Program-made: the position numbers and the translations under genes
Assembly: GCA_022684035.1 (NCBI GenBank)
Contig: JAJHSB010000062.1
Location: 6,054 to 70,053 of the forward strand
Length of the DNA: 64,000 nt
Origin: Candidatus Acetothermia bacterium
GTDB lineage: Bacteria; Bipolaricaulota; Bipolaricaulia; UBA7950
Reading direction: 5' to 3'
Notes under the pieces: model-generated
Told to the model about the DNA's origin: nothing
Seen by the model: only the letters and a program-made list of their open reading frames with translations
Databases searched by the model: none
Shown here: piece by piece, positions 8,437 to 59,192 of the stretch
Numbering within the stretch: position 1 is the first letter of the stretch
How the letters are laid out: the number at the start of each line of letters is the position of its first letter

Positions 8437-8928
8437 ATGGAGAAGAAGATGCAACTAAAGAATGATAAGAACCAGCTATTTGATTTTCTCCTCGGTAGAG
8501 TGGAAGAGATGGTTGAGCAGTCAACTAACATCGAGAAGACTCTTTTAGCCATTTGCAATCTGTTGAAGGATCATTGTACACATTATGACTGGGTGGGATT
8601 CTACCTGGTAGATCAGTCAAGCAAGAGCGAACTTGTACTTGGCCCATTTGTTGGTGAACCGACTGAGCATGTACGAATACCGTTTGGAAAAGGAATTTGC
8701 GGTCAGGCAGCAGCAAGAAAAGAGAGTTTGATTATCCAAGATGTTTCAACAGAGACAAACTATCTCGCGTGCAGTCCAAAGGTGAAAGCTGAAGCAGTGA
8801 TGCCAATTATTAAAGCAGGAAAGATCGTCGGGGAGCTTGACATAGATTCCCATCGTTGCTCAGCGTTTACAAGCAAAGATGAAAAATTCCTCAACCAGGT
8901 CTGTAAAAGTATCTCTAAGCTGTTTTAG
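8437..8928 (+). CDS. GAF domain protein, free methionine-(R)-sulfoxide reductase-like
   Basis: Single GAF domain of about 160 aa (YDWVGFYLVD...GKGICGQAA...). Confidence 0.7.
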   Translation: MEKKMQLKNDKNQLFDFLLGRVEEMVEQSTNIEKTLLAICNLLKDHCTHYDWVGFYLVDQSSKSELVLGPFVGEPTEHVRIPFGKGICGQAAARKESLIIQDVSTETNYLACSPKVKAEAVMPIIKAGKIVGELDIDSHRCSAFTSKDEKFLNQVCKSISKLF

Positions 8929-9039
8929 TCTCTAAAATCTAAAGTCTTACCTGCCCGTTGGTGCATGGGGTCCAGGGCAGTGCGCATGGGGTCTGGTCTT
9001 TACTTTTGATATTTCTCTCTATCATTCAATAATCTGCTT

Positions 9040-10027
9040 ATTGTTGAAAATACTTGTTAGATAACGATACGTTCTATGACAATATTCATTTGCTCTTTCA
9101 AGTATTGAGCCGGGGTTTTGTAGTTCAAAGATTTCAATCTCGTTTCAAAATTGTAACGATTAATAAACTCAATTAGCTTACTATTCATCTCAAATATACT
9201 TTCAAAACGATATTTTGGTAAGGCTTGTTCTCCGGCAGTGCGATTGAATCTCTCAACCATTCCGTTAGTCCAAGGATATTTAAACTTAATTGTGTGGTGT
9301 TTTATCTCATGCTGGCGACAGATTTCTTCAAAGGGATGAATCTTCTTTGTCCGCTTGTCTTTGGGTAAGGCTTTGTAGGTAAACTCAAAGCCACTGTCAG
9401 TTAAGATGTAGTTGATCTTGTAGGGATAGAAATCTAAAACTGCTCTTAAGAACTTAGCTCCAGTCTCTTTTTGCTTATTCTTTCCAATCATAACAAACGC
9501 GATCTTAGCAACTCGGTCAATAGCTGTATAGATGTAGGATCTTTGACCGTTAATCTTGGGTCCATAGAGAAGATCAATGTGCAGATAACCAATGCCATAT
9601 CTCCTGAATTTTTTGATTTTTCTCTCAGCATCGGCAAACTCATTGGGCAAGAGACTGAGATTGTATCTTTTTAGGCAGCGATAGATCTTCATTGGGTAGA
9701 GATTGGGAATCTCACCCTCTAAACTAAAGAAGATATCTTCGATTGTTTTCTTAAACTGTTTCCTTTCAAAACAAATCCGTTCTTCTTCCGCAGGGCTCAA
9801 GGTTGTTTGCAGAACTTTGGGGCGTGAAGATTTATCCTCCAGACTTGTTGCTCTTTTCCACCTTAAAGCAGTAGTCGGAGAGAGACCATACTTTTTAGCT
9901 AAAGCATAAGCAGAAAGGGGCGACTCTTTAATTGCTTTCCTTATCGCCAAAGTTGTGGTAGCATTCTTATGTAATCTTATTTTCATACACTAAGATTATA
10001 CACCTTAATGTCTCGTTAGTCAACAAT
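9040..10027. mobile_element. IS481-family insertion sequence (about 1 kb) abutting the tyrS stop
   Basis: A single transposase ORF in an AT-rich segment. The termini ATTGTTGA...TAGATAACGATAC (left) and, reverse-complemented, ATTGTTGAC-TAACGAGAC (right) form an imperfect inverted repeat. No clear target-site duplication. Confidence 0.5.
9057..9986 (-). CDS. IS481-family DDE transposase (rve integrase core)
   Basis: N-terminal HTH followed by an rve-like catalytic core (HIDL...TDSGFEF...WTNGMVER). Confidence 0.75.
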   Translation of the reverse strand: MKIRLHKNATTTLAIRKAIKESPLSAYALAKKYGLSPTTALRWKRATSLEDKSSRPKVLQTTLSPAEEERICFERKQFKKTIEDIFFSLEGEIPNLYPMKIYRCLKRYNLSLLPNEFADAERKIKKFRRYGIGYLHIDLLYGPKINGQRSYIYTAIDRVAKIAFVMIGKNKQKETGAKFLRAVLDFYPYKINYILTDSGFEFTYKALPKDKRTKKIHPFEEICRQHEIKHHTIKFKYPWTNGMVERFNRTAGEQALPKYRFESIFEMNSKLIEFINRYNFETRLKSLNYKTPAQYLKEQMNIVIERIVI

Positions 10028-14693: not shown

Positions 14694-15344
14694 TGGATAG
14701 AACAAAAATCGAATAACGCGAAGGTCATACCGCAAAACCAATAATCCGGAGAAAACCGCAATGAAAATTATGAACCGTAAGAGAATTATAAAAGCGATCA
14801 TCAATCTCTTCACGATAATCATTGCTTTTCTGGGAATTTTGCTCGCTATTTTGGTGGTTACAACGCAGGAGTCTATTGCTTACCTCTCTGTTATGTTGTT
14901 TCAAAAGCGAAAGAAAGAGCCGGAAAAGAAGAAGGAGGAGGAGACGTAAAGGGAAAGGTAATCTGTCACAGGGTTTAACGGTTCACAGTTATTGGCTTAT
15001 TTTTCATTGTCGATGTGTAACTACTCCGCTATTTATGTTGAAGGCCAAAGTATTCTTATCCTCAAGCCTTCTATTTTTAGTCTATTATCCACCGGCATAG
15101 TTACGCAATGCTTTGCTAACCCCATTCTCTGTAATCGGGCTTAGAGACGACTCCGAATAACTGGTTGTGATTCTCAGTAGGGGTACGGCAGGTAGAAAAG
15201 TTAAGGGGTTCACGGTTCATGGTTCAGAAAAACGAGAAATCAATGAAATTTATTAAACCCGCCCCTACGACTTTTCTTAACCCATCACCGCTCGTCCTCG
15301 CTCCCCTTAAGTGCTCTCTGTGGTTTCTTTACGAACTCCACAAA

Positions 15345-15425
15345 CGGGATTGCTTCGCAGACTCGCAATGACGGAGAAAGACGTCTGCAATGCCAGTGAA
15401 AGGCGCTTGCAATGACCTGTCTATT
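15345..15425. repeat. 'gcaatgac' repeat element (copy 1)
   Basis: gggattgcttcgcagactcgcaatgac...cttgcaatgacctgtct recurs at 46536-46592, 55890-55920 and 56896-56990. Confidence 0.7.
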
Positions 15426-16611: not shown

Positions 16612-16700
16612 TTAATGGATCATCTCCCAAAAAGTTGGTAAGATCATGAGTATTCGAGGGATCAAGCCCCGTATCAAGTACGGGGCAAGGATTCGAGGGA
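16612..16700. repeat. hairpin/REP-like element at the 3' end of the dipeptidase gene
   Basis: ggatcatctcccaaaaagttggtaagatcatgag is the inverse of a segment at 53576-53606. A ccccgta...tacgggg hairpin lies at 16667-16685. Confidence 0.6.
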
Positions 16701-17331: not shown

Positions 17332-17463
17332 TAACAAAGCTCAGACTGAAGTTCCCCGGGACTTACACAATCGAATGATTCCCCTAACAAACTCGAGGGT
17401 TCTTTTAGATTATAGCTTTTCTGTTTGAGATTTTGGTGATTGGAATTTGTGATTTCAAATCCT

Positions 17464-18012
17464 TTAAGCCATTGCACTTATCTCCCGCTCTCCCTGAGTA
17501 ATGAACTCGCGTAGCCAATCGCGCACTGTTGGATGTGATATAGGTACATCACCCAGCTCGGTACGAATCTCGGCTGTATCAAACTCAAACCGGCGATCGT
17601 TCACCGTGTGGAGATAGTGCAGATCAACCTGGCTCTCTGACAGCAGCACGGTGAGTAGGCTGCTACAAATATCTCCAATTGGCGCGCGGTCAATATGACT
17701 ATGCTGAAAGACAACCTGAAGCTTGGTCCCTTTGCCCAATTCGGACTCAAGCGTAAGACTACCGCTACACTGCTCAGCGGCAGCAGCAAAGAGAGGCAAT
17801 CCCAGACCAACATGGCGAGTCCTGCGGGTGGTATAAAAAGGATCCACTGCTCTCTTCACTCTCTCTTTATCCATTCCTCGCCCGTTATCTTCAACGATAA
17901 TAGTCAACCGGTCAGCGATCATATCTTCGCTAATCGTTAGTTTTATCCGCGATGCCCCTGCCTCGACAGAGTTTTGCAGAACATCAAGGATATGCAGAGA
18001 GAGTTCACGCAT
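17464..18012 (-). CDS. GHKL/HATPase_c-only ATP-binding protein (anti-sigma/HfsC-like kinase module)
   Basis: N-, G1- and G2-boxes of a histidine-kinase-like ATPase (DNGRGM...GLGLPL) with no sensor or HisKA domain. Confidence 0.7.
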   Translation of the reverse strand: MRELSLHILDVLQNSVEAGASRIKLTISEDMIADRLTIIVEDNGRGMDKERVKRAVDPFYTTRRTRHVGLGLPLFAAAAEQCSGSLTLESELGKGTKLQVVFQHSHIDRAPIGDICSSLLTVLLSESQVDLHYLHTVNDRRFEFDTAEIRTELGDVPISHPTVRDWLREFITQGEREISAMA

Positions 18013-18317: not shown

Positions 18318-18468
18318 CAAATCCTAAGCAAAAACAAATCCTAAATTCTAAGCACCAAATTCCAAACAAATTCAAAATCCGAATGTTCAAAACGTTTTGC
18401 ATTTTGAGTTTTGGTCATTTGGATTTGTTTAGGATTTAGAATTTAGGATTTAGGATTTCGTGCTTCGA
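18318..18468. repeat. MITE-like inverted-repeat element, family 2
   Basis: Arm aaatcctaaattctaagcaccaaattccaaacaaattc pairs with arm ttgagttttggtcatttggatttgtttaggatttagaatttaggatttaggattt. Confidence 0.7.
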
Positions 18469-19643: not shown

Positions 19644-19900
19644 TCCTAAATCTTTTACTTATTCACCAAATCCTAACTCCTAAACTCTAAATTCTAAATC
19701 CTAAATTCTAAATCCTAAATTCTAAACAAATTTAAATGTTCCAAATCCAAATAACCAAAACTATGTTTTTCTACTTTCTGCATTTTTCTATTATTATTTC
19801 TCTTGCAAACTCCTCTGTTCTTCTCTCTAAATCATAAAGTTTTGAATTTTGGTCATTTGAGTTTTGAGTTTGTTTGGAGTTTAGAGTTTCGGATTTAGAC
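19644..19900. repeat. MITE-like inverted-repeat element, family 2 (larger copy)
   Basis: A tandem 14-mer (taaattctaaatcc)x3 arm, an AT-rich centre, then the inverse arm ttttgaattttggtcatttgagttttgagtttgtttggagtttagagtttcggatttag. Confidence 0.7.
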
Positions 19901-19943
19901 TTTTCCATAATTATTCCCTCTTCTTCTCAGAAAGACTGAACTG

Positions 19944-21286: not shown

Positions 21287-21293
21287 CCCCTCC

Positions 21294-21345
21294 CCTAACC
21301 CGGACAAGCCGGAAATTCCAATGACCAAATCCCAATAACGAAAAT
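21294..21345. repeat. family-1 MITE terminal fragment
   Basis: cccggacaagccggaaattccaatgaccaaatcccaataac matches the family-1 MITE terminus. Confidence 0.6.
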
Positions 21346-21523
21346 TAAATATCAAAGTTTAAATATCAAAATTACATATAAAAATACAAAAATTATTTCC
21401 CCAAACCCCTATACTTCCAATCATTGTTCAACTGATAACGTCGACTTGTTCTTGAGCTTATCATCTCTCACAGAGGTTGTCAAGGAATATCTTTGTTCCG
21501 AGCGATCTTTCTCCTGAAAGAAA

Positions 21524-21572
21524 AAAACACTTGAACCCTTGCACCCTTGAATCCTTTTTAGTAACTAAATTG
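21524..21572. repeat. 'aatttagttgctaaaaagg' 3'-end hairpin element (reverse orientation)
   Basis: Reverse complement ccaatttagttactaaaaaggattcaagggtgcaagggttcaagtg, immediately downstream of the dinB stop. Confidence 0.65.
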
Positions 21573-21584
21573 GAGAAGAACCTC

Positions 21585-34169: not shown

Positions 34170-34401
34170 CCAAACTTCCTCGTATCACAAATTATGTAAA
34201 GCCAGAGTATATCGCCTTATGCGAAGTGTTACAAGATACCGCATTGCCTCATCAAAAAAGTACTCCAAATCGTATCGTTGCCTTAAATGAAAAATGTACT
34301 TAAATTTGGCGGTAAAGGAAGAGATGGTTGTCTCCTACCATGGTGTGCAGTTACGCCTCGCCTCGTGGAATAGACTATTCCCATGGAGCCTGTCATCTAT
34401 T

Positions 34402-34480
34402 AAAATTTAGTTGCTAAAAAGGATTCAAGGATTCAAGTATTCAAGTATTCCGCTTGACTCCTTGACCCCTTGACCCCTGG
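34402..34480. repeat. 'aatttagttgctaaaaagg' hairpin element between the hydA 3' end and metG
   Basis: A (gattcaag)x3-4 array followed by an inverse (ccttgacc)x3 array forms a long imperfect hairpin. The same family occurs at 53500-53606 and 21524-21572. Confidence 0.7.
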
Positions 34481-34490
34481 AATTGTCCTG

Positions 34491-36533: not shown

Positions 36534-36587
36534 TTTTTACCTCCGATGATAAAATTAACCACGAATATACGCGAATTGACACGAATG

Positions 36588-36986
36588 TTATAAAACTATT
36601 CTTTCATATTCTAACTTCGGTCTTGCAAAATTTATTATTATTCCTAACTTTAACCCAGTTGCTTTAAGATAATTTATTACTTGAGCACGGTGAATATCAG
36701 TAATCTTCTCAACACACTTCATCTCTAAAATTATTTCATCCTCTACAAGTATATCAGCAAAATATTCGCCGACTATTTCTCCCTCAAAATGCACTTTGAG
36801 CGGTGCTTGCTGAACTACCTTCATCCCATTTTTATTCAATTTTATTATTACTGCATTTTCATACACTTTCTCTAAAAATCCTGCTCCAAGAGTATTATGC
36901 ACCTCCATTACTGCGCCTATCACTTTATAGGAAAGTTCTTTATGCAGTATTTTTTCGTGTTCATTAGTGTTCATTCGTGGTTTCAT
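36588..36986 (-). CDS. GxxExxY family protein (PD-(D/E)XK-like) inserted between hydB and hydA
   Basis: The family signature reads GAGFLEKVYENA; 132 aa. Its first 11 codons are encoded by a 30-bp repeat that also occurs intact directly after the hydB stop. Confidence 0.8.
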   Translation of the reverse strand: MKPRMNTNEHEKILHKELSYKVIGAVMEVHNTLGAGFLEKVYENAVIIKLNKNGMKVVQQAPLKVHFEGEIVGEYFADILVEDEIILEMKCVEKITDIHRAQVINYLKATGLKLGIIINFARPKLEYERIVL

Positions 36987-37116
36987 TAGGTAATTCGGTA
37001 ATTCGGGGTCAGGTCTTGAATTTTAACATTTATCTTAAGCCACGAATTAACACGAAAAGTTATAAAACAAGCTCTTTATAAATAATTTCGTGTTCATTAG
37101 TGTTCATTCGTGGTTT
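36954..37116. repeat. duplicated intergenic segment flanking the GxxExxY gene
   Basis: The 30-mer ttcgtgttcattagtgttcattcgtggttt is identical at 36954-36983 and 37087-37116. cgaattNacacgaaNNgttataaaac is also present at 36572-36596 and 37043-37068. Confidence 0.85.
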
Positions 37117-37119
37117 TAT

Positions 37120-38943
37120 CTATTTAAGTCGTCCCGGAATGCATGTCACCGCGGCAAATCGCTCCGGGCATACACTCAAGCATATCCCACATCTGTTACA
37201 CTTATCCTGGTCTATAACGTGAACCTCTTTCTTACCACCTGTAATCGCTCCGATAGGGCACTTCCGCAGACAGATCATACAGGCTTTACATTTATCCGGC
37301 GCGATATAGTAAGAGATAAGCGGCGGGCACACCCTTGCGGGGCATTTTTGTTCACAGATATGAGCGATGTACTCATCATGGAAGTAGCGAAGCGTTGTGA
37401 GCACCGGGTTGGGAGCTGTTTTCCCCAGTTGACAGAGTGATCCATCCTTGACGGTAGTAGCTATTTCTTGTAGCAAATCGAGGTCCTCTTCCCGCCCATC
37501 TCCGCTGGTGATTCGGGTGAGAATCTCCAGCATCCGCTTCGTCCCCTCGCGACAGGGCACGCACTTACCACAGGATTCATTCTGGGTAAACTTCATAAAG
37601 TAGCGAGCTACCTCTACCATGCAATCATCCTCACTGAGAACTACCAGCCCGCCCGAACCCATGATCGCTCCTGCGGAGGTTAAAGATTCATAATCTATAC
37701 CATAATCCAGGTGTGTCGCCGGAAGGCATCCCCCAGAAGGGCCGCCTATTTGCACCGCCTTGAACTTTTTGCCGCCTTCTACACCTCCTCCGATATCAAA
37801 GATGATTTGGCGTATGGTGAGGCCAAATGGTATTTCGACCAATCCAGTGTTATTTACCTTTCCGGTCAAAGCGAAGGTCTTTGTCCCGGGATTAGTAGGT
37901 GTACCAAAGCTGCGAAACCAATCCGCCCCGTTTAATATGATTCCTGGTACATGGCCTAAAGTCTCGACGTTATTGATGACTGTCGGATTACCCCGCAGCC
38001 CTGAAGTTGCCGGAAAAGGAGGTCGCTGCCGTGGCATTCCACGTCTGCCTTCCATGGCAGCAATCATCGCCGTCTCTTCGCCGCAGACAAAGGCACCTGC
38101 CCCTTCCATGATATCGATCTGACAGGAGAAATCGCTTCCGAGAATCCCATCGCCAATCAAACTATATCCTTGGGCATCATCTATCGCCTGCTGCAAGCGC
38201 TTTACGGCGAGTGGGTACTCAGCTCGTACGTAATAAATATATCCCTGCCGAGCTCCAATCGCATAGGCGGCAATCAGCATTCCCTCTAATACCCGATGGG
38301 GATCGCCCTCAAGTAAGCTGCGGTTCATAAATGCCCCTGGATCACCCTCATCACCGTTACAGACCACATACTTCACCTCTCCGGGAGCGCGGTAAGCAAA
38401 CTCCCACTTCCGCCCAGTGGGGAACCCGGCACCGCCACGGCCGCGCAGGATTGAGCGTTTGATCTCTTCAATAACATCTTCCGGGTTCATTTCAAAGAGG
38501 GCTTTACCGAGAGCCTCATATCCACCCCGAGCGATATACTCCTCGATGTTCTCCGGATTAATCACACCGCAGTTGCCGAGAACAATACGCTGCTGCTTGG
38601 CGTAGAAGGGCATCTCGCTGTAGTGCGGCAAGGCCTGATGAGAGATCGGTTCTTTATAGGTAAGGGCTTCCACCACCCGACCTTTCACAAAGGTCTCCTC
38701 CACCAGATGAGGGATGTCTTTCTCCTGAACACGGCAGTAAAGAATTCCCTCGGGATAGATGATCACCAACGGGCCCATTTCGCAGAGCCCGTGACAACCG
38801 GTGAAAATTACCCGCACCTCATCTTCAAGGCCGCGGCGTGCAATCTCTACCTTCAGGAGATTGAATATCTTGTCCGCACCGGAGGCAACACATCCGGTAC
38901 CTCTACATACCAGGGCATTTGCTCGATAAAAAGCTTCAGTCAT
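37120..38943 (-). CDS. hydB: [FeFe]-hydrogenase beta subunit HydB (NuoF-like NADH/FMN-binding flavoprotein with 2Fe-2S and 2x4Fe-4S)
   Basis: NuoF motifs (GRGGAGFPTG, C-x2-C-x2-C-x3-CP pairs). Start reset to ATG 38943, which has an AAGGAGGT RBS; the ORF-track extension to 38988 runs into the MITE. Confidence 0.9.
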   Translation of the reverse strand: MTEAFYRANALVCRGTGCVASGADKIFNLLKVEIARRGLEDEVRVIFTGCHGLCEMGPLVIIYPEGILYCRVQEKDIPHLVEETFVKGRVVEALTYKEPISHQALPHYSEMPFYAKQQRIVLGNCGVINPENIEEYIARGGYEALGKALFEMNPEDVIEEIKRSILRGRGGAGFPTGRKWEFAYRAPGEVKYVVCNGDEGDPGAFMNRSLLEGDPHRVLEGMLIAAYAIGARQGYIYYVRAEYPLAVKRLQQAIDDAQGYSLIGDGILGSDFSCQIDIMEGAGAFVCGEETAMIAAMEGRRGMPRQRPPFPATSGLRGNPTVINNVETLGHVPGIILNGADWFRSFGTPTNPGTKTFALTGKVNNTGLVEIPFGLTIRQIIFDIGGGVEGGKKFKAVQIGGPSGGCLPATHLDYGIDYESLTSAGAIMGSGGLVVLSEDDCMVEVARYFMKFTQNESCGKCVPCREGTKRMLEILTRITSGDGREEDLDLLQEIATTVKDGSLCQLGKTAPNPVLTTLRYFHDEYIAHICEQKCPARVCPPLISYYIAPDKCKACMICLRKCPIGAITGGKKEVHVIDQDKCNRCGICLSVCPERFAAVTCIPGRLK

Positions 38944-38956
38944 CAGATTACCTCCT

Positions 38957-39200
38957 TCCCCGGACAAGCCGGAAATCCCAATAACCAAATCTCAATTTCC
39001 AAACAATAATCAAATTTCAATAATCAAACTTCTATTGCGATTTGTCGATAATCGAGGAGAAGACTCCGGCCTTTCTGTTTGAGATTTTGGTCATTGGTCA
39101 TTGAGCTTTGTTTGGAAATTGGTGCTTGGAATTTGTGATTTCAACTCCTTGCCATTCCCCGCCTTCGCGAGGACAAGTTTGCGTCAGATTTCAGATTTTG
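38957..39200. repeat. family-1 MITE-like element, about 245 bp, complete, inside the hyd operon
   Basis: Left arm ccggacaagccggaaatcccaataaccaaatctcaatttccaaacaataatcaaa. Right arm tttgagattttggtcattggtcattgagctttgtttggaaattggtgcttggaatttgtgatttcaa. About 90% identical, as reverse complement, to 55611-55865. Confidence 0.85.
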
Positions 39201-39215
39201 GGGACTTATAGATGA

Positions 39216-39590: not shown

Positions 39591-39647
39591 TCTCAAATCC
39601 TCCTTCCCTACTTCAATTTCTTTCCATTTCGCGCACGACTTTAGATT

Positions 39648-39890
39648 TTAGACCTTAAGCCCTTCCTTAAAATTCATTACATCAACGGTAACGCGGGAAA
39701 AGGGCTTTCCCTCTCTTTGAACCATGCTCTCCATTTCCTTATAAACTTCAGAGCTGAAGAACTTCTCGCCACACTGTTGACATACCTTTGCCGGAACATC
39801 CTCAAAAATAACCAGCTTCTCACCCTACCAGAAATCTACATTGACCTCCTCTTTCACCTTCCCCCCACAGAAATAGCACTTAGTTAACAT
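39648..39890 (-). pseudogene. YgiT-type zinc-finger (MqsA-like) antitoxin with in-frame TAG at codon 22
   Basis: MLTKCYFCGG...DFW*GEKLVIFEDVPAKVCQQCGEKFF shows the two CxxC pairs of the YgiT zinc finger. The in-frame amber codon sits at 39825-39827 and the frame stays open to 39648. The start is 3 nt after the DUF4258 stop. Confidence 0.6.
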
Positions 39891-39892
39891 TT

Positions 39893-40195
39893 CTATCTTC
39901 TCCTTGTTCTTAAATCCTCTTCCCATTCGGCGGGCTGTGGTTCGTACGCTATTATAATCTCCTCTTCTGCTTTACCGCAAACCACATGTAACGGTCTTCC
40001 TTCGTGAGTGAAGCCCAGGATCAGACAACTTGGTCCTCTATGATCACGTGGATAATCCTCGATTATCTCGCCTTTAGAAATAGCTTCTTCAATCTCCCGA
40101 ACGCCTATCCTTCTCCTTCGAATCTTTTCAGTATGTGTAAACGACCCATGATACTTCCCCTCTTTAACCTTCTGCCTAATTTCGTTTAAAGTCAC
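39893..40195 (-). CDS. DUF4258 protein (putative toxin of a DUF4258/YgiT-ZnF pair)
   Basis: The motifs GEIIEDYPRDHRGPSCLILGF...GRPLHVVCG...IIIAYEPQPAEWEEDLRTRRR match the DUF4258 consensus. GTG start. Confidence 0.8.
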   Translation of the reverse strand: MTLNEIRQKVKEGKYHGSFTHTEKIRRRRIGVREIEEAISKGEIIEDYPRDHRGPSCLILGFTHEGRPLHVVCGKAEEEIIIAYEPQPAEWEEDLRTRRR

Positions 40196-40276
40196 TCTCG
40201 ACCCCCTTTACGCACTTAAGAACCTTATGCCCAATGATGAAGTCAAATACTACATAGGGTTCTCATTGCAATCCTC

Positions 40277-40396
40277 CTAACCCGAACAAGCCGGAAATCC
40301 CAATGACCAAATCTCAAATTCCAAACAATAATCAAATTCCAATAACCAATCCCTGCCTTCGGCTCGTGGCTCGTGGCTCGTGGCTCGTGGCTCGAA
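40277..40396. repeat. family-1 MITE half-element plus (GGCTCGT)x5 heptamer array
   Basis: cccgaacaagccggaaatcccaatgaccaaatctcaaattccaaacaataatcaaattccaataaccaa followed by ggctcgtggctcgtggctcgtggctcgtggctcg. Confidence 0.8.
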
Positions 40397-41038: not shown

Positions 41039-41151
41039 ACCAGCACCGAGCCTAAGTCAGTTTAGCTTAAAGTAGTTTCATCTGCAAGTTTACCCCTCTT
41101 CTCATCTTTCTGATTTTCTGCTGCGCTGGCAGTGAACCTGACATTTAGTAC

Positions 41152-41385
41152 CTAAATTCTGAAGTTTTGCGCAAAATGGCAAGGAATTGAAATCTCAAAT
41201 CCCAAGCACCAATTTCCAAACAAAGCTCAATGACCAATGACCAAAATCTCAGACAGAAAAGCCAGAGTATTTTTCTCGCTTAGGGACAAATTGCTCATAG
41301 AAGTTTGGTTATTGGGATTTGGTTATTGTTTGGAAATTGAGATTTGGTCATTGGGATTTCCAGCTTGTCCGGTTTAGGGACAGAA
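41152..41385. repeat. family-1 MITE-like element (complete copy)
   Basis: ctaaattctgaagttttgcgcaaaatgg...aatgaccaatgaccaaaatctca [about 50-bp core] tttggttattgggatttggttattgtttggaaattgagatttggtcattgggatttccagcttgtccgg. Confidence 0.85.
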
Positions 41386-41475
41386 CAAACTTTGTCGATT
41401 ACCGAACAAAAAATAGCCGGTCTGGACTTACGTGATCGCAATCCAGCCCGGCTATAAAGAGTTATCTTTTATCGT

Positions 41476-42520: not shown

Positions 42521-45500
42521 TTACTTACGAAAGACCGTGCCACGGAAGGTGTAGATTATAGCACCATCGCGCAACACAGCAACGAAGATATACGGCCCTT
42601 TAGCAAGTAGAACGCCGGCTTCATCCCGACCGTCCCAGACGACTTCCTCTCCAGGACCGACATCGTGCGCTATGATATCCCGTACCTCACGTCCGAGCAT
42701 ATTGAAGATCCTTATGGTAAACGTCTCGGCAACACCGACTCCTTTAAAGGAGAAGCGCGACCCCCGCTCATGGACGACGATGAACTCGTCAATCTCGAGG
42801 GGTGGTGGTACCACTACTACTGGTTTGACAGTGATCGTTACCGTAGTTATATCTGATATGCCGCCACGGTCATCCAGCGCACGGTAGGTAAAAGTAACGA
42901 TGCCGTGCCACCCAGCAGGCGGCGTAAAGGTGAAGGAGCCGTCAGGACGCAGATCCAACACGCCGTGGACAGGTGCTGTTACCAGTTGCGCTCGCAGTGG
43001 GTCATTATCCGGGTCAGTGTCATTTGCCAGTACTCCTGGCGCAGGAACAGTGAGAACCGTGTCCATAAGGACTGGATAGGTATCAGCTACTGCGACTGGC
43101 GGACGGTTGACGACTGCCACGACTCGTGTGGCGATCAATGCCGCATCACCAGGATCAGATGGATCCTGGAAAAAGGCGAGGATCGTATCACCGGTCCGTG
43201 CCCCAAGGTGCTCTACAAGTCTAATCGGCGTAACGCTGCGGAAAAGCCCGCTGCCAATCTCGGTCTCCCAGAGCACTACCCGCACCCTCACATTTGTGCG
43301 TGAGTTGAAGACTTCAATTAGTATTGAAGGGTGTTCTACCTCTGGAACTGAAACGAGCGATTCACGTCGGTAATTATCTTCGTTCTGATCCGGGTCATAG
43401 ACCTCGATAAAGGCCGCTTCAGCGATCGTATAGCCGATGACCGGCACGCCGGCAGCATCGACAAATCGCATATTGAGACGACCGGTTTTACCATCAAAGA
43501 CCAGTGTGCGACTGACTTCCATCTCCGCGAATGCGACCCGGTAATGAGCATACCAGTAGGTGATCCGCTCGGGTTCAGCAGGATAACTTGCAACCTCTAC
43601 CGCGTTAAACTGGACAATCACTGCACTCCGATTGAACGTCTCAAGGTCCTTATTACCCAGATCGAACGGAGCCCATGGAGGTTCAGCGATGCCACCAGCC
43701 CATACCACTGGATAGAGACCCAGACCGGTTCGAGCGCGAAAGATCGGTGCGTTGACTCCAACCTCATCGAGGATGATCCATTCCCGGTCAGTAGATTGAG
43801 GGCTAAATATCTGCACCACGACCGCGTCGCGTGCTCGACGGTTGCGATTGAGAGGAGAGTACATTACCTCAACATTGATCCGGTCACGACCGAGGTCAAA
43901 TTCCTCTGGGCGAGTCCAATCTGCGGCAGCAAAGTAAATTTGAGGACTTACCACCGGCGTGCGTATTGCATATGCAGTGTCAAACGCCACATCACTGAAG
44001 TCATTCGGATCAACGTAAAACGCAGCAAGGACATATTCTACCCGCAGGCGCGTAAATCCGAGCGCTCTCTGAATATCGATAAGCCTGAGCTCAAATATAC
44101 CGGTATTGGCACCTGTCTCCTGAGCAAAGAAGACGATGCGAGTTAGTCCGGGTCCGGCCGGATCTCCGGGGAGCGGAGCACCGGCAACATTTAGTGTGTC
44201 AAAGCCATACCCACGCCCTTCGTTATTGATAAGACGCATAGGTTCACCAGGCCGAGCCATATCGACAACATAGACGATAAAGCGATCCGGATCATAGATA
44301 TTGTACCAGCGGATCGGTTCGCCGCGACAGACCCAGCTCTTTATCGGGGGAGGCACATCAGGCGCAGTGACAGTGATCGTTACCGTTGCCGGTCCTGATA
44401 CACCGCCTCTAACATCTCTTGCGTGGTAGGTAAAGGTGACGATGCCGAAGAACCTGACCGGCGGCGTGAAGGTAAAGGAGCCGTCAGGACGCAGATCCAA
44501 CACGCCATGGGCAGGTCTTTCTACCAGCACTGCGCTCAGTGGGGCAGCAACCGGAGCCACGGTGTCATTTGCCAGTACTCCTAGCGCAGGAACAGTGAGA
44601 ATTTCCCCCCATGGTATAGTATAAGTATTAGGGAGCGCGACCGGCGGAGTAAATCCAAGGGGATGAGCAACAGTGATTGTTACCGTTGTCTCTGGTATTG
44701 TAACCAATCCTGATACGCCGCCTGTAGAATCTACTGCGCGGTAGGTAAAGGTGACGATACCGAAGAACCCGCGTGGTGGGCTAAAGGTAAAGGAGCCGTC
44801 AGGACGCAGATCCAACACGCCGTGGGATACCGGACGTACCAGCACTGCTCTCAGTGGGAAGTTACCGTCCGGGTCAGTGTCATTTGCCAGTACTCCTGGT
44901 ACTCCTGGTACTCCTGCAGTGAGAACCAGGTCCATAGGGACTGTATAGAAGAGATCAGCTACTGCGACTGGCAACAGAAAGCCGGCACGCAGAACAGTGA
45001 TCGATACCGTTGCCGGTTCTGATACACCGCCTCTAATATCTTCTTCTGCGCGGTAGGTAAAGGTGACAACACCGTGAAAGTCGGGCGGTGGCGTGAAGGT
45101 AAAGGAACCGTCAGGACGCAGATCCAACACGCCGTGGCATACCGGACGTACCAGCACTGCTCTCAGTGGGGCACCATCCGGAGCCACGATGTCATTTGCC
45201 AGTACTCCTGCTGGCAGCGCAGCAACGCGGAGAATTCCCCTCCATTGTATTGTATAAGTATTAGGGAGCGCGACCGGCGGAGTCTGGAGTGCCGGATCCA
45301 CAGAGATTCCTTCTACTCCGCCTGATTCAAACAACATCTGGAAATTTGTGGCGCTTCGCCCTCGCGCGGCAGGAAATTGAATTGGCTCAGGACCAGCAGC
45401 AGATATCTCAACTGGATTCCACGACCCTGGATTGACGATGATAAATATTGGTACCTCTTCTACTTCCATCGGGTCCAGGTTCTCATCAGGATCAGTAATC

Positions 45501-46445: not shown

Positions 46446-46640
46446 CACAGAGAACACAGAGAACTCAGAGAAGAGAAGAACAGAAGTCAGGAGCCAGGAG
46501 CCAGAATCCGCCTGCCTGTGCGTCTCCGCACGTAGACAGGTCATTGCGAATTACCTTCCTTTGTCATTGCGAGTCTGCGAAGCAATCTCGTTCGTAGAAG
46601 AGAGGTGGCTGGTGGCTGAATCCTGGCTACTGTCTACTGT
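46446..46640. repeat. composite repeat: purine-rich heptamer-like array + 'gcaatgac' element + GGTGGCT array
   Basis: Homologous, as reverse complement, to 56896-57005 and 50300-50400. Confidence 0.7.
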
Positions 46641-46647
46641 CTTTTGC

Positions 46648-47553
46648 TTAACGCTTCAGGCGGGGATCGAGTGCGTCACGGAGGCCGTCACCGAGGAAAT
46701 TATACCCCAATACGCAGAGGAAGATTGCGATACCGGGAAAGAGAGGCAGCCACCACGCAGTACGGAAAAAGGGCATTCCGAGGTTAATCAGTGTCCCCCA
46801 GCTCATCTGGGGCGGCATCACTCCCAAACCGAGGAAACTGAGTGCACTTTCGCCCAGAATCACACTGGGGATTCCCAGTGTCACGGCAACGATGACCGGC
46901 GCCATAGTGTTGGGCAGAAGATGGCGGAAGATGATCCGCGCATTTCCTACTCCGAGAGCACGGGCCGCTTCAGTAAATTCTTGTGCGCGCAGTTTCAAAA
47001 ACTCGGCGCGCACAATACGAGATATCCCTGTCCACCCCAATCCGCCCATTATGAGAATCAATACCCAGATGGACGGTCCGAGCAGCGCCACCAGAGACAA
47101 GATGAGGAACAGACTGGGAAAGGAAAGTAAGATATCGACAAATCTCATTGCGAGACTATCGATAATACCGCCGTAATAGCCGGCCAGCGCACCGATCAGC
47201 ACACCGATTGTGACCGAAAGTGCTACTGCCAGCAGGGCGATCAGAAGTGAGATGCGTGATCCATAGATGATCCGACTGAGCATATCTCGTCCTAATGAAT
47301 CGGTGCCGAGCCGATGCTCTTGACTCGGTGGTTGCAACCGATTACGCACATTTGTTTTTAATGGATCTTGCGGAGTGAGAAAGGAAGCGAATATAGCGAC
47401 CAGCGTAAAGAAGAGAACGAGGATTGCGCCGCCAACTGCCAGCCGGTTGCGACGAAATCGGCGACAAAAAGAGGCAAAGAAAGTCTGACGCTGCTCATTA
47501 ATCAATTCTTCTGCTGGTTTAGTCATATCTGATTCTCGGGTCGAGGAATGCAT
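46648..47553 (-). CDS. peptide ABC transporter permease (OppC/DppC-like)
   Basis: BPD_transp_1 EAA loop (SRIVRAEFLKLRAQEFTEAARALG). Confidence 0.9.
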   Translation of the reverse strand: MHSSTRESDMTKPAEELINEQRQTFFASFCRRFRRNRLAVGGAILVLFFTLVAIFASFLTPQDPLKTNVRNRLQPPSQEHRLGTDSLGRDMLSRIIYGSRISLLIALLAVALSVTIGVLIGALAGYYGGIIDSLAMRFVDILLSFPSLFLILSLVALLGPSIWVLILIMGGLGWTGISRIVRAEFLKLRAQEFTEAARALGVGNARIIFRHLLPNTMAPVIVAVTLGIPSVILGESALSFLGLGVMPPQMSWGTLINLGMPFFRTAWWLPLFPGIAIFLCVLGYNFLGDGLRDALDPRLKR

Positions 47554-50299: not shown

Positions 50300-50400
50300 G
50301 TTCGGAGAAGAGAGGTTGCTGGTGGTTGGTCGCTGTCTCCTGTCTCCTGTTTCCTGTCTCCTGGCTACTGGCTCGACTCGCAATGACAAGAAAGCGAAGG
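50300..50400. repeat. composite repeat with (TGTCTCC)x4 heptamers and 'ctcgcaatgac'
   Basis: gttcggagaagagaggttgctggtggttggtcgctgtctcctgtctcctgtttcctgtctcctggctactggctcgactcgcaatgac. Confidence 0.7.
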
Positions 50401-53476: not shown

Positions 53477-53499
53477 ATTCTTATTTTTGGTTCTTTTCC

Positions 53500-53606
53500 A
53501 ATTTAGTTGCTAAAAAGGATTCAAGAATTCGAGGGTTCAAGTATTCCCCTTGACTCCTTAACCCCTCGAATCCTCATGATCTCACCAACTTTTGGGGAGA
53601 TGATCC
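53500..53606. repeat. 'aatttagttgctaaaaagg' hairpin element, 24 nt after the stop codon
   Basis: aatttagttgctaaaaaggattcaagaattcgagggttcaagtattccccttgactccttaacccctcgaatcctcatgatctcaccaacttttggggagatgatcc. Confidence 0.7.
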
Positions 53607-55373: not shown

Positions 55374-55610
55374 TATCAATGCGTTTACCAAAGTAGGGCA
55401 GTCCGAAGAGACCGTCCGGTAGCTGTACAAGTAGAAGTAGGGGCGATCTGCACACCGCCCCTACTTTTTATTAGATAGAGCTTGTCTAAAAACTCCAATG
55501 ACGATTTCCTATGGAAGCAGCAGTTTTTAGACAGCCTCAATAGATAGAGGTGTTTGACACCATAAGAATTTCAAAGTGCAGAATAAAGTAGATAGACTAG
55601 ACTATTAGGG

Positions 55611-55920
55611 TCTAAAATCTAAAGTCTTGCGCAAACTTGTCCTCGCGAAGGCGGGGAATGGAAAGAAGTTAAACTCACAAATTCCAAGCACCAATTTCCA
55701 AACAAATCTCAATGACCAATGACCAAAATCTCAAACAGAAAGGCCGGAGTCTTTTCCTCGATTGTCGACAAATCGCTCATAGAAGTTTGGTTATTAGGAT
55801 TTGGTTATTGTTTGGAAATTGAGATTTGGTCATTGGGATTTCCGGCTTGTCCGGGTTAGGGGCAAAACAAACTCTGTAGGATTAAGCAACGGGATTGCTT
55901 CGCAGACTCACAATGACAAA
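55611..55920. repeat. family-1 MITE-like element (complete) plus 'gcaatgac' tail, 5' of the tRNA cluster
   Basis: ggtctaaaatctaaagtcttgcgcaaa ... aatgaccaatgaccaaaatctcaaacag [core] tttggttattaggatttggttattgtttggaaattgagatttggtcattgggatttccggcttgtccgggttagg, then gggattgcttcgcagactcacaatgac. Confidence 0.85.
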
Positions 55921-55988
55921 GGGGAGAGAGGGCTATTTTGTATTCTCCTTGACCGATAGAACAGAACTTGGTAATATTCATTAGAGTT

Positions 55989-56204: not shown

Positions 56205-56278
56205 CGCGGGGTGGAGCAACCTGGAAGCTCGTCGGGCTCATAACCCGGAGGTTGTCGGTTCGAATCCGACCCCCGCAA
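56205..56278 (+). tRNA. tRNA-fMet initiator (CAT), copy 1
   Basis: C1:A72 mismatch and three G-C pairs in the anticodon stem (gggCTCATAAccc). Confidence 0.8.
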
Positions 56279-56302
56279 CTAGTTGCAATATTTAGTATTT
56301 AC

Positions 56303-56376
56303 CGCGGGGTGGAGCAACCTGGAAGCTCGTCGGGCTCATAACCCGGAGGTTGTCGGTTCGAATCCGACTCCCGCAA
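56303..56376 (+). tRNA. tRNA-fMet initiator (CAT), copy 2
   Basis: Near-identical to copy 1, differing by 1 nt in the acceptor 3' strand. Confidence 0.8.
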
Positions 56377-56388
56377 CTATGTCAAGTC

Positions 56389-56463
56389 GGCGACGTAGCT
56401 CAACCGGCTTAGAGCGCTCGGCTCATATCCGAGAGGTTCAGGGTTCAAGTCCCTGCGTCGCCA
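56389..56463 (+). tRNA. tRNA with CAT anticodon (elongator Met or lysidine-modified Ile2)
   Basis: GGCGACGTAGCTCAACCGGCTAGAGCGCTCGGCTCATATCCGAG...TTCAAGTCCCTGCGTCGCCA. I cannot tell Met from Ile2 by eye. Confidence 0.7.
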
Positions 56464-56541: not shown

Positions 56542-56605
56542 TTCTCTGTCATTGCGAGAGTTCGCAGAACTCGTGGCAATCTCAAAGAGATAATTCTCGT
56601 TTAGA

Positions 56606-57005
56606 TGCTAAAATCTGAAGTCTTGCGCAAAATGGAAAGGAATTGAAATCACAAATTCCAAGCACCAATAACTAACTACCAGAAAGAGTGACTCGTGACT
56701 CGTGACTGGTAACTGGAGGGGAAGATCCCACGAGCCACGAGTCACGAACCACGAGTCACGAACCACGAGCCACGAGCCGAAGGCAGGGATTGGTTATTGG
56801 GATTTGGTTATTGTTTGGAAATTGAGATTTGGTCATTGGGATTTCCGGCTTGTCCGGGTTAGGGGCAAAACAAACTCTGTAGGATTATAAGGAATGAGAT
56901 TGCTTCGCTGACTCGCAATGACAAAGGAAGGTAATTTGCAATGACCTGCGAAGAGACTCGCAATGACCTGTCTGCGTGCGGGAGACGTACAGGCAGGCGG
57001 AATAG
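56606..57005. repeat. family-1 MITE-like element with internal heptamer arrays plus 'gcaatgac' tail, 3' of the tRNA cluster
   Basis: The core contains gactcgtgactcgtgactggtaactgg and the inverse array cacgagccacgagtcacgaaccacgagtcacgaaccacgagccacgagcc. Arms as in the other family-1 copies. The tail gagattgcttcgctgactcgcaatgacaaaggaaggtaatttgcaatgacc is about 95% identical, as reverse complement, to 46541-46592. Confidence 0.85.
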
Positions 57006-59026: not shown

Positions 59027-59044
59027 AAGTAATTCCTCAGGAGT

Positions 59045-59192
59045 CAGAAGTCAGGAGCCAGAATCCAGAATAGAGGATAAAACGAATTGATGAGCCTTTT
59101 GCCAAACAATTAAGTCTTGAAAATGCTTGGCTGAGTTTCTCTTCATTCTGACTCCTGAATTCTGGCTCCTGGCTACTGAGTAGTTACGCGTA
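59045..59192. repeat. long inverted repeat (arms of about 37 bp with a 65-bp loop) between the PNP 3' end and the AEC start
   Basis: cctcaggagtcagaagtcaggagccagaatccagaat ... attctgactcctgaattctggctcctggctactgagtag. Confidence 0.8.

Follow-up and report, generated by a model that had tools for sequence, protein, structure and literature searches.

A composite repeat family with a nearly invariant 22-nt right end in a Candidatus Acetothermia hydrogenase operon and in other bacterial phyla

The electron-bifurcating hydrogenase (hyd) operon of a Candidatus Acetothermia bacterium holds short repeats, several of which end directly at the ribosome-binding site of the next gene, and the question raised by this locus is what these repeats are and how they came to lie there. 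The DNA analysed here, referred to below as the window, is a stretch of 64,000 nucleotides (GenBank assembly GCA_022684035.1, contig JAJHSB010000062.1, positions 6,054 to 70,053 of the forward strand); coordinates are those of the window unless a locus is named, the repeats are called Family-1, and loci outside the window carry the letter L and a number. We think it probable, at roughly 60%, that Family-1 elements belong to a mobile but non-autonomous repeat family of composite structure and wide distribution, apparently hitherto undescribed, which has most likely spread across phyla of mostly anaerobic bacteria, often landing at ribosome-binding sites.

Family-1 copies in the window

With copy C as a BLAST query, the window yields copy A (38954-39211, minus strand, 90.0% identity over 259 nt), copy B (41175-41401, 88.6% over 228 nt) and copy D (99% in the last 98 nt of D and 89.7% over 39 nt of its left part), together with half-copies at 40276-40349 (93%) and 21292-21371 (79%) and a fragment at 8925-8948 in which 22 of 24 bases match. 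A repeat finder recovers the same copies. At up to 3 mismatches the 22-nt right-end motif described below occurs six times in the window and 0.00 times in 100 shuffles, and a left-end 24-mer occurs four times, again against 0.00 in shuffles. Since the copies exceed chance and every one of them has stops in all six frames, the repeats are real and non-coding; all pieces are strictly intergenic. This agrees with an earlier reading of the bare letters of the window (the sequence-only reading), which had reported short, non-coding, multi-copy repeats with truncated copies at these positions but had overlooked a left-end-only copy (39628-39665) and an internal fragment (17415-17465). The elements measure 230-290 bp, and the pieces that belong to the family, or are loosely related to it, are as follows.

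38954..39208, minus strand: copy A, complete, with an optional 22-nt stem-loop, its boundary set against sister operons; right end 38954-38975, reading ...TTTCCGGCTTGTCCGGGGAAGG, 10 nt from the hydB ATG at 38943; left end ~39150-39208, preceded by TAAG
41145..41401, plus strand: copy B, complete; TTAG at 41145-41148, right end 41357-41378
55605..55887, plus strand: copy C, complete; TTAG at 55605-55608, right end 55839-55860, extension to 55887
56601..56887, plus strand: copy D, with the family left end, right arm and right end (56842-56863)
40276..40394, minus strand: half-copy with CACGAGC words, right arm and right end (40276-40297)
21292..21371, minus strand: half-copy with right arm and exact 22-mer (21294-21315)
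39628..39665, minus strand: left-end-only copy, joined to GTAGGGAAGGAGG and the ATG of a 2Fe-2S gene
8925..8955, plus strand: left-end fragment (TTTAGTCTCTAAAATCTAAAGTCTTA) on the stop-codon side of an IS481-like transposase gene (9057-9986)
17415..17465, minus strand: internal fragment of left arm and core edge, 85% identity over 41 nt
18336..18465, minus strand: looser relative with Family-1 arm words and without the 22-mer, in a spacer of the DRTGG/PHP/HATPase operon
19650..19918, minus strand: looser relative, likewise with arm words and without the 22-mer, its end ~25 nt away from the start codon (ATG) of the second DRTGG gene

The core is common to copies A, B and C (88-90% identical), contrary to the unique cores earlier ascribed to two copies, and only in D is the centre replaced, by a nested GTGACTC/CACGAGC heptamer hairpin at ~56684-56778. 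The half-copy at 40276-40394 matches the right half of D at 94% over 119 nt. In copy B the right end is followed by a 23-nt extension that C and D also have; A and C, but neither B nor D, carry a 22-nt GC-rich stem-loop (CTTGTCCTCGCGAAGGCGGGGA). The inverted arms of 60-70 bp described earlier do not hold: the two ends differ, the ccggacaagccgg / CCGGACAAGCCGG end having no inverted partner at the other end of the copies, and the arms are internal, 57 nt long and only 70-72% complementary. At the left end the window copies read TTAG-nnn-CTAAAATCTGAAGTCTTGCGCAAAATGG, and this left end (TTAGATGCTAAAATCTGAAGTCTTGCGCAAAATGGAAAGGAATTG) fits the left-end consensus derived from metagenomes below. Folded singly, A and C are modestly stable (z = -1.5 to -2.9) and D strongly so (z = -5.05).

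The right end and the architecture of elements in metagenomes

Searched as the pattern TTTCCRGCTTGTYCGGNTTAGG, the right-end 22-mer TTTCCGGCTTGTCCGGGTTAGG has at least 120 exact matches in metagenome contigs, where by our own estimate chance would supply ~0.4-9 in 0.2-5 Tb of sequence; in 1.29 Mb of unrelated control loci there is no match at up to 4 mismatches. The consensus, TTTCCGG(C/T)TT(G/A)TCCGGGTTAGG, is nearly invariant. Among the 120 pattern-selected matches listed, to which the counts out of 120 below also refer, information content is ~0 bits directly on both sides of the 22-mer, its three degenerate positions prefer G (114/120), C (116/120) and G (103/120), the contigs range from 35 to 65% GC, and 17 of them carry at least two copies. 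Further copies on the same contigs, for which the last six bases were not required, mostly still read GTTAGG. Proteins neighbouring the 120 loci are unrelated and include no recurrent family. Patterns that took in the arm gave no matches (34 nt in genome contigs, 29 nt in metagenome contigs); the arms are lineage-specific, and only the shorter end motif worked. The 22-mer had only chance matches in a plasmid collection and seven matches in viral contigs, mostly near contig ends, and spurious open reading frames (ORFs) translated from the element had no match in a set of 5.8 billion proteins.

Taxon names were obtained by exact look-up of adjacent proteins (19 of 20 were in the collection) and are those of 90%-identity protein clusters. 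They read Deltaproteobacteria, Desulfobacterales or Thermodesulfobacteriota for L099, L129 and L203, Syntrophobacterales for L134, Anaerolineae or Anaerolineales (Chloroflexota) for L086 and L204, Nitrospirota for L093, and Planctomycetota or Brocadiaceae for L155. Counting the Ca. Acetothermia of the window, the labels of bacteria that have the 22-mer come to five phyla, as far as the binning of metagenome-assembled genomes (MAGs) is reliable. Near letter-perfect conservation of 22 non-coding bases in Acetothermia, Desulfobacterota, Chloroflexota, Nitrospirota and Planctomycetota is very unusual, and implies either frequent horizontal passage of a small mobile element between anaerobes or recognition by a conserved machinery. 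In practice the 22-mer is a simple probe for the family and, eventually, for its enzyme.

Upstream of the 22-mer the sequence is not conserved and nearly always consists of copy-specific 7-8-nt tandem words (for example ttcgtca, ctctgtg, tttaggc, cttcgcg or ccttggtg) that pair with an inverted arm. A full element comprises a ~45-nt left end starting TTAG, a long word hairpin and the 22-nt right end, with 138-388 nt from TTAG to the 22-mer. The left end is moderately conserved (TTAG-K-NN-CTTA(A/G)...GC(A/G)nAAAA(T/C)GGCAA(A/G)AAtaTTT); a loose pattern for it has 26 matches, at 15.9/Mb in motif loci against 1.6/Mb in controls, and in 22 of the 26 a right end follows within 400 nt. It also contains a small hairpin of the TTGC..GCAA type whose stem varies with compensation (TTTGCA..TGCAAA, GTGC..GCAC, CTTGC..GCAAG, CTTGT..ACAAG), these being examples only, as the position of the hairpin shifts between subfamilies, and in whose loop nested GC-rich mini-hairpins recur (A, C, L116, L151, L204). 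A few variants have inverted right ends on both sides (L107, L113), and tandem right|left junctions are seen in L103, L120, L134 and L151. In L097 (2800-2895) the left end runs straight into a right end of the variant TTCCGGTTTATCCAGGTTAGA without the hairpin, in ~66 nt, from which we take the element to be a composite of a ~66-nt left-plus-right unit and an interchangeable hairpin; the word hairpin would then be a module of its own, nested in the element, unless slippage deleted it here.

Hairpin loops in L165 (4608-4990) and L182 (2105-2425) hold a further nested repeat, GTCATTCC..GCGAAAGC..GGAAT...CCGGAGTGACG...TTACGAGACCGTCA, so that small palindromic elements evidently insert into one another.

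Window copies align over their full length to elements elsewhere (L179, L177, L165, L107, L155), and with these, as well as with L087 and L197, they share both the ends and Family-1 arm words such as CAAGCACCAAATTACAAACAAATCTCAAT; the homologous elements adjoin unrelated genes in the other organisms. Among the listed matches the 150 nt upstream of the motif fold with a mean z of -2.1 (46% below -2), compared with -0.4 (9% below -2) for the downstream control. For covariation we aligned three window copies with seven metagenome relatives, and RNAalifold predicts on this alignment the long hairpin and a small CCGG-N5-CCGG hairpin. Paired cells amount to 89.2%, compared with 77.6 ± 1.5% in shuffles (0/500), both sides have changed in 15 of 30 pairs where 8.0 are expected, and the covariation score of 0.302 drops to at most 0.067 when partners are slid by 1-3 columns, where pairing is 26-58%. 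Pairing in the long hairpin is under constraint and is kept by compensatory change, which is not explained by the simple decay of transposon ends. The sequence-only reading had set a structured RNA with covariation against mobile DNA, and the result is divided: the compensatory change is there, but no strand-specific signal accompanies it, sense and antisense folding energies being equal (p = 0.27) and G-T (G-U) cells numbering 14 against 7 A-C cells (p = 0.19). Rfam 15 at its gathering threshold finds only seven tRNAs in the window, and with E-values up to 5 the four complete copies and the 40276 half-copy give only chance-level matches.

These observations bear on the proposal that Family-1 arose in place, without transposition, as tandem heptamer arrays of the STRR kind by local slippage. 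The words (TTGGTCA)x2 do stand at 39087-39100, as had been noted, and TTGGTCA is identical to the STRR2 reported by Mazel et al. 1990; the likeness looks incidental, since arms of the relatives use quite different 7-nt words. It is also the case that the arms are built of 7-nt words, that the window has many other heptamer arrays, and that heptamer repeats upstream of starts are known in Beggiatoaceae and cyanobacteria (PMC4679880). Slippage is nevertheless already contradicted by 88-90% identity over 230-260 nt at unrelated loci, non-repetitive ends and core included, by full-length homologues in other organisms and by the same ends in other phyla; nor can a shared 22-mer come from slippage, and we regard this explanation as extremely improbable.

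Start codons, target sites and the question of an enzyme

At 35 of the 120 loci the start of a same-strand ORF of 60 aa or more lies 0-20 nt beyond the motif, compared with 3 of 120 in a mirror-image antisense control (Fisher p = 6e-9). Spacing from motif to start is mostly 7-11 nt, most often 8-9, and nine of ten predicted starts just after the motif coincide with database gene calls. The flank often continues AGG or GAG, such that the terminal TTAGG and the flank read like TAAGGAGG. In the window, the right ends of copy A and of the 40276 and 21292 half-copies, and the left-end-only piece, are each separated by 7-21 nt from the start (ATG) of the gene that follows in the same direction, with a GGAGG-type sequence directly after them; at 40276 GGAGG and ATG follow within 9 nt, and at 21292 the GGAGGGG-ATG of the first DRTGG gene follows directly.

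Placement of this kind, taken with the hairpin covariation and a 22-mer invariant across phyla, is what might be expected if Family-1 were a conserved cis-acting RNA module, that is, a selected 5'-UTR or intercistronic element in which the 22-mer would be a ribosome or protein binding site that supplies or controls the Shine-Dalgarno sequence, and the hairpin a signal for processing or stability, such as a substrate of RNase III comparable to the rRNA intervening sequences. Start codons mostly 7-11 nt after the motif in ~30% of the listed cases, and the window pieces A, 40276, 21292 and 39628 directly at the Shine-Dalgarno sequences of co-directional genes, fit such a module. It is opposed by the lack of strand asymmetry in folding energies and G-U cells, by the 43 of 101 copies that face the 3' end of a convergent gene together with copy B, which is antisense to both neighbours, by downstream genes that are functionally unrelated, and by truncated and nested copies, which are typical of mobile DNA. 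Nor is there promoter-like enrichment or an Rfam match; scans for promoter and terminator consensus sequences are at background, and the tRNA promoter-like site lies downstream of copy C. The weak orientation bias (given below) and the antisense copy B make the pattern unlike an obligatory sense-strand function, and it suggests instead that Shine-Dalgarno-like sites are preferred, or that copies are retained at them. A selected RNA module is accordingly a possible reading of Family-1 but, in our view, an unlikely one.

TTAG stands at both boundaries of the elements, and a departure on one side is often mirrored on the other: copy A has TAAG on its left and GAAG on its right, and the two sides agree as TTTAG for copy B, TTAGGG for copy C, TTGGGG for L204 and TTAGG for L102. 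If copy A and one AAG are taken out, the junction reads normally, as TGA-tcatctat-AAGGAGG-taatctg-ATG. These features hint at a 3-6-nt target duplication or else at insertion into T(T/A)AG(G); as GTTAGG is constant in independently found copies, at least part of it would belong to the element.

The hyd operon (minus strand) runs in the order copy B (antisense, after the terminator of a 322-aa gene), hydC, half-copy 40276, a DUF4258 gene with its zinc-finger partner, the left-end-only copy, the 2Fe-2S gene, copy A, hydB, a GxxExxY gene and hydA, so that Family-1 elements fill its intercistronic spacers; they also flank the tRNA cluster of the window on both sides, copy C lying upstream of its promoter-like site (55949-55977) and copy D directly 3' of tRNA-Ala. 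Copy B, between the terminator and hydC, is antisense to both neighbour genes. As had been suspected, the N-terminal extension of hydB read through copy A is spurious, for the database gene call has 607 aa and starts at 38943.

Two sister hyd operons from the same JGI sample, L083 and L084, encode HydB 86% and 82% and HydC 85-86% identical to those of the window and contain no Family-1 copies. In both, the stop codon of hydC and the Shine-Dalgarno sequence of hydB share bases (GAAGGGAGGTAATCTGATG). In the window, homology to the sisters (GAAGGAGGTAATCTGATG) resumes directly after ...TTGTCCGGG of copy A, 1.5 kb away from the 3' end of hydC, a comparison that places the right boundary of the element. 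The comparison further shows that the inserted block was gained in the lineage of the window. In a HydB search with one genome per species no relative exceeds 65% identity, and hence no orthologous empty site is available there.

The DUF4258 gene and the small CxxC...CxxC zinc-finger ORF (39680-40195, minus strand) look like a toxin-antitoxin pair; neither of the two sister operons has them.

A second assembly of the same organism (GCA_025994725.1, contig JAPDMH010000002.1; NCBI name on its proteins, 'Candidatus Acetothermia bacterium') is 99.94% identical to the window. The two differ by 13 substitutions in 20.4 kb, none of them inside an element, and every element is in place in both, so there is no evidence of recent movement; with copies that differ from one another by 8-12%, the earlier description of the family as recently active is not borne out. 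That repeats of this kind interrupt assembly is seen in a JGI contig from this organism, which stops within a related element (~19.7 kb in window coordinates).

Of the 13 substitutions just mentioned, ten are clustered in an internally repeated Big_9/cadherin gene (42952-43081), likely through gene conversion or repeat collapse in assembly.

Candidates for a mobilising enzyme were sought near the motif. That the window has no matching transposase was correct; its only transposase is the IS481-like one, found in a single place, which gives no route to other contigs. Three inverted 22-mer pairs 2-5 kb apart, examined as candidate full-length insertion sequences, enclose MetK, YicC-like and RnfC-like housekeeping genes (L167, L165, L118). 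A link to Y1 transposases of the RAYT kind was rejected after a jackhmmer search with the L083 Y1 protein found none in motif loci.

This L083 protein is encoded by a 221-aa Y1_Tnp (RAYT-like) gene between hypC and hypF, flanked (1660-1680, 2385-2440) by inverted GGGGACAGCGACCATT repeats and CCTTATC heptamer arrays; the flanking repeat is GGGACAGCGACCATT, not the 22-mer.

A further candidate lies within the hyd operon itself. The GxxExxY gene (TIGR04256, PF13366; 36588-36986, minus strand), between hydB and hydA, is enclosed by the arms CCACGAATGAACACTAATGAACACGAA and TTCGTG...GTGG and has an ORF-less twin hairpin alongside (region 36560-37115); the arm words (CACGAAT) match the 5' coding sequence of the gene itself (MNTNEHE). 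The same CACGAAT words stand on both sides of homologues that are 64-73% identical and carry the names Planctomycetota, Brocadiia and Deltaproteobacteria, with termini TTAGCCACGAA...TTCGTGGCTAA and adjoining ORF-less twins (L212, L218, L220, L223, L226). One could then suppose that Family-1 elements are ORF-less derivatives of hairpin-borne GxxExxY (PD-(D/E)XK) or four-helix-bundle cassettes, and that the nuclease of the cassette mobilises both full and empty versions. The twins in the window and beside the homologues speak for this, as do many metagenome arms that use similar words and the GxxExxY remnant in the loop of a left/right-type element in L174. On the other side, neither the 22-mer nor the left end is in any of the fetched GxxExxY loci, only two of the 120 motif loci have a GxxExxY homologue and only one has it inside an element, the Family-1 arm words (AAATCNC/TTGGTCA) are unlike any ORF start, and PF13366 is without known function (PMC3424549). 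The link appears to be one of architecture and not yet of mechanism, and we find descent from such cassettes doubtful, somewhat more so than a selected RNA module. The left end (CTTAATTGT...TGGCAAAA) was also considered as the DLIVWQKA coding start of four-helix-bundle genes, a resemblance judged coincidental.

If Family-1 is, as we prefer, a mobile and non-autonomous family, its units would spread within genomes, and between phyla, as DNA, by an enzyme supplied in trans that would recognise the ends, and probably by way of a single-stranded hairpin form. They would land at T(T/A)AG(G)- or TTAG/AAGG-like sites, a type of site frequent where the ribosome binds, in purine-rich sequence immediately 5' of start codons, and the last bases of the element and the flank would thus often form a Shine-Dalgarno sequence. 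The word hairpin would probably be a second, nested module, bearing in mind L097 without it and copy D with a different hairpin inside, and in the hyd operon the elements would be co-transcribed and either tolerated or used as intercistronic RNA hairpins. Because they often end at the ribosome-binding position and sit inside operons, the elements may reshape the translation and mRNA processing of core metabolic genes, here those of an electron-bifurcating hydrogenase. Their practical effects are to break metagenome assemblies and to create false N-terminal extensions and spurious ORFs.

Several findings weigh against mobility. The comparison of hyd operons reveals a 1.5-kb composite insertion and not a clean empty site for a single element, none of which was seen, and the two assemblies of the organism show no presence/absence difference. 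No transposase, recombinase or Y1 protein recurs near the 120 loci, and no unit of left end, ORF and right end was found in motif loci. Flank concordance fails in two of seven informative cases (L085, L118), GTTAGG is too constant to be simply target-derived, and orientation to the downstream gene is weak (58 co-directional, 43 convergent, p = 0.16). The taxon labels derive from MAG bins, and the exact agreement of 22 nt between phyla could be due to some function in the host instead.

A bolder version of the preferred reading is highly tentative, and we would not expect it to hold in full. The left end and the 22-mer (~66 nt) may serve as the recognition unit for a mobile system of several phyla that has not been described before. 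Such a system would home to Shine-Dalgarno-like sites and carry interchangeable word hairpins, some with GxxExxY nuclease genes, and would thereby supply unrelated genes in at least five phyla with portable translation-initiation regions or intercistronic RNA hairpins.

Other repeats in the window and comparison with known systems

Nearly every spacer of the window holds some word repeat. A separate family, GATTGCTTCGC-N-GACTCGCAATGAC with a GCGAAGC mini-hairpin, occurs at 15337-15380, 46537-46598, 55883-55922 and 56888-56948, and directly follows copies C and D. Word hairpins with GGATTCAAG / CTTGACCCC words and a shared AATTTAGTTGCTAAAAAGG lie at 34388-34486, 53489-53606, 21526-21582 and 16617-16666, and heptamer arrays (CAGGAGC/CTGGCTC) at 46481-46653 and 50326-50370. 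The segment 53890-54348 has eight tandem copies of a 55-58-nt unit, each with GGAGGTAAATGCGATG and AAAAAAGG; a 121-aa ORF without a Pfam match, on the opposite strand, overlaps most of this array. At 59038-59178 (minus strand) the loop of a CAGGAGC-word hairpin encodes ...HFQDLIVWQKAHQFV..., which looks like the N-terminal stub of a four-helix-bundle (23S rRNA IVS-type) protein. In the tRNA cluster, ordered Gly-Leu-Met-Met-Met-Ala, three tRNA-Met (CAT) genes stand in a row (56205-56463), the first two 98% identical.

Literature searches with the motif string, accessions, heptamer repeats, MITEs in these taxa and GxxExxY returned nothing that describes the family, and keyword searches only general work on REP, REPIN, MITE and TAACTGA repeats. 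Comparison with MITEs, the miniature transposable elements with inverted repeats, such as Correia/NEMIS of Neisseria, ERIC/IRU of enterobacteria and RUP/BOX of pneumococci brings out many likenesses, in that these too are short, non-coding, multi-copy, intergenic and hairpin-forming, often just upstream of genes, with truncated or mosaic copies and without a transposase of their own. Family-1 differs in its asymmetric ends, its hypervariable word-array arms and the invariance of one end across phyla, where a known MITE family seldom extends beyond one genus or family. The earlier label of MITE-like thus suits the behaviour of the elements, which have the size, non-coding nature and copy number of classical MITEs, but not their anatomy: terminal inverted repeats are lacking, the left end (TTAG..CTAAAATCTGAAGTCTTGCGCAAA) being unrelated to the right end TTTCCGGCTTGTCCGGGTTAGG, and no autonomous insertion sequence with matching ends is present in the window or near the 120 listed loci.

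REP, REPIN and BIME sequences, the repeats associated with RAYT proteins, likewise consist of palindromic units with a short conserved tag by a hairpin and a compensatory stem, and like Family-1 they occur as singlets, inverted doublets (here L107, L113) and tandem mosaics (here L103). The Family-1 right-end hairpin has only 4 bp, however, and its units are 140-390 nt and not 20-40 nt. Membership was rejected, as the reverse complement of the right end, CCTAAC-CCGGACAAGCCGG, is without the GTAG or CGTC tag by which REPs are defined (PMC3733652), no RAYT is nearby, and no cognate Y1 is in motif loci.

The non-autonomous derivatives of IS200/IS605 (PATEs) resemble Family-1 in having two different ends with subterminal hairpins, a fixed tetranucleotide at the left boundary (here TTAG, ~20 nt from the left hairpin) and a sharp right boundary a few nucleotides after the right hairpin. 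In Family-1 the geometry is TTAG, ~18-22 nt and a left hairpin at one end, and a right hairpin, G and TTAG at the other; its two hairpins are unlike each other, and flanks look duplicated in several copies, unlike those of PATEs. No TnpA or TnpB was found, nor an Rfam match of the omega-RNA type. Integron attC sites are recognised by their core sites R'' (RYYYAAC) and R' (GTTRRRY), which pair over an imperfect hairpin, and by their place in arrays of cassettes next to an integrase. In Family-1 GTTAGG agrees with GTTRRR. At the left end, however, CTTAA/CTAAA stands in place of CCTAAC, and the neighbours are housekeeping operons without an integrase, so that this candidate was set aside.

With STRR and the TAACTGA repeats of Beggiatoaceae (PMC4679880) Family-1 shares intergenic heptamers that often overlap the ribosome-binding site, and occurrence in distant phyla. 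Those repeats are direct tandem arrays without inverted arms or conserved ends (PMC4679880), and in Family-1 TTGGTCA stands only twice in arms that mix words and pair with an inverted arm, the relatives using other words. The 23S rRNA intervening sequences and GxxExxY/four-helix-bundle genes are alike in being long imperfect hairpins inserted into transcribed DNA, whose loop may or may not hold a small ORF, and in their sporadic cross-phylum distribution; Family-1 differs in lying outside rRNA and having no ORF, and the GxxExxY cassettes examined are without the 22-mer. An origin from rRNA or tRNA fragments was discarded, as no rRNA or tRNA model matches the elements, and resemblances to 23S segments were not colinear and were dropped. 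Family-1 elements therefore behave like gene-proximal MITEs such as Correia and ERIC, and like REPIN/BIME mosaics, while departing from both in the very features by which each is defined.

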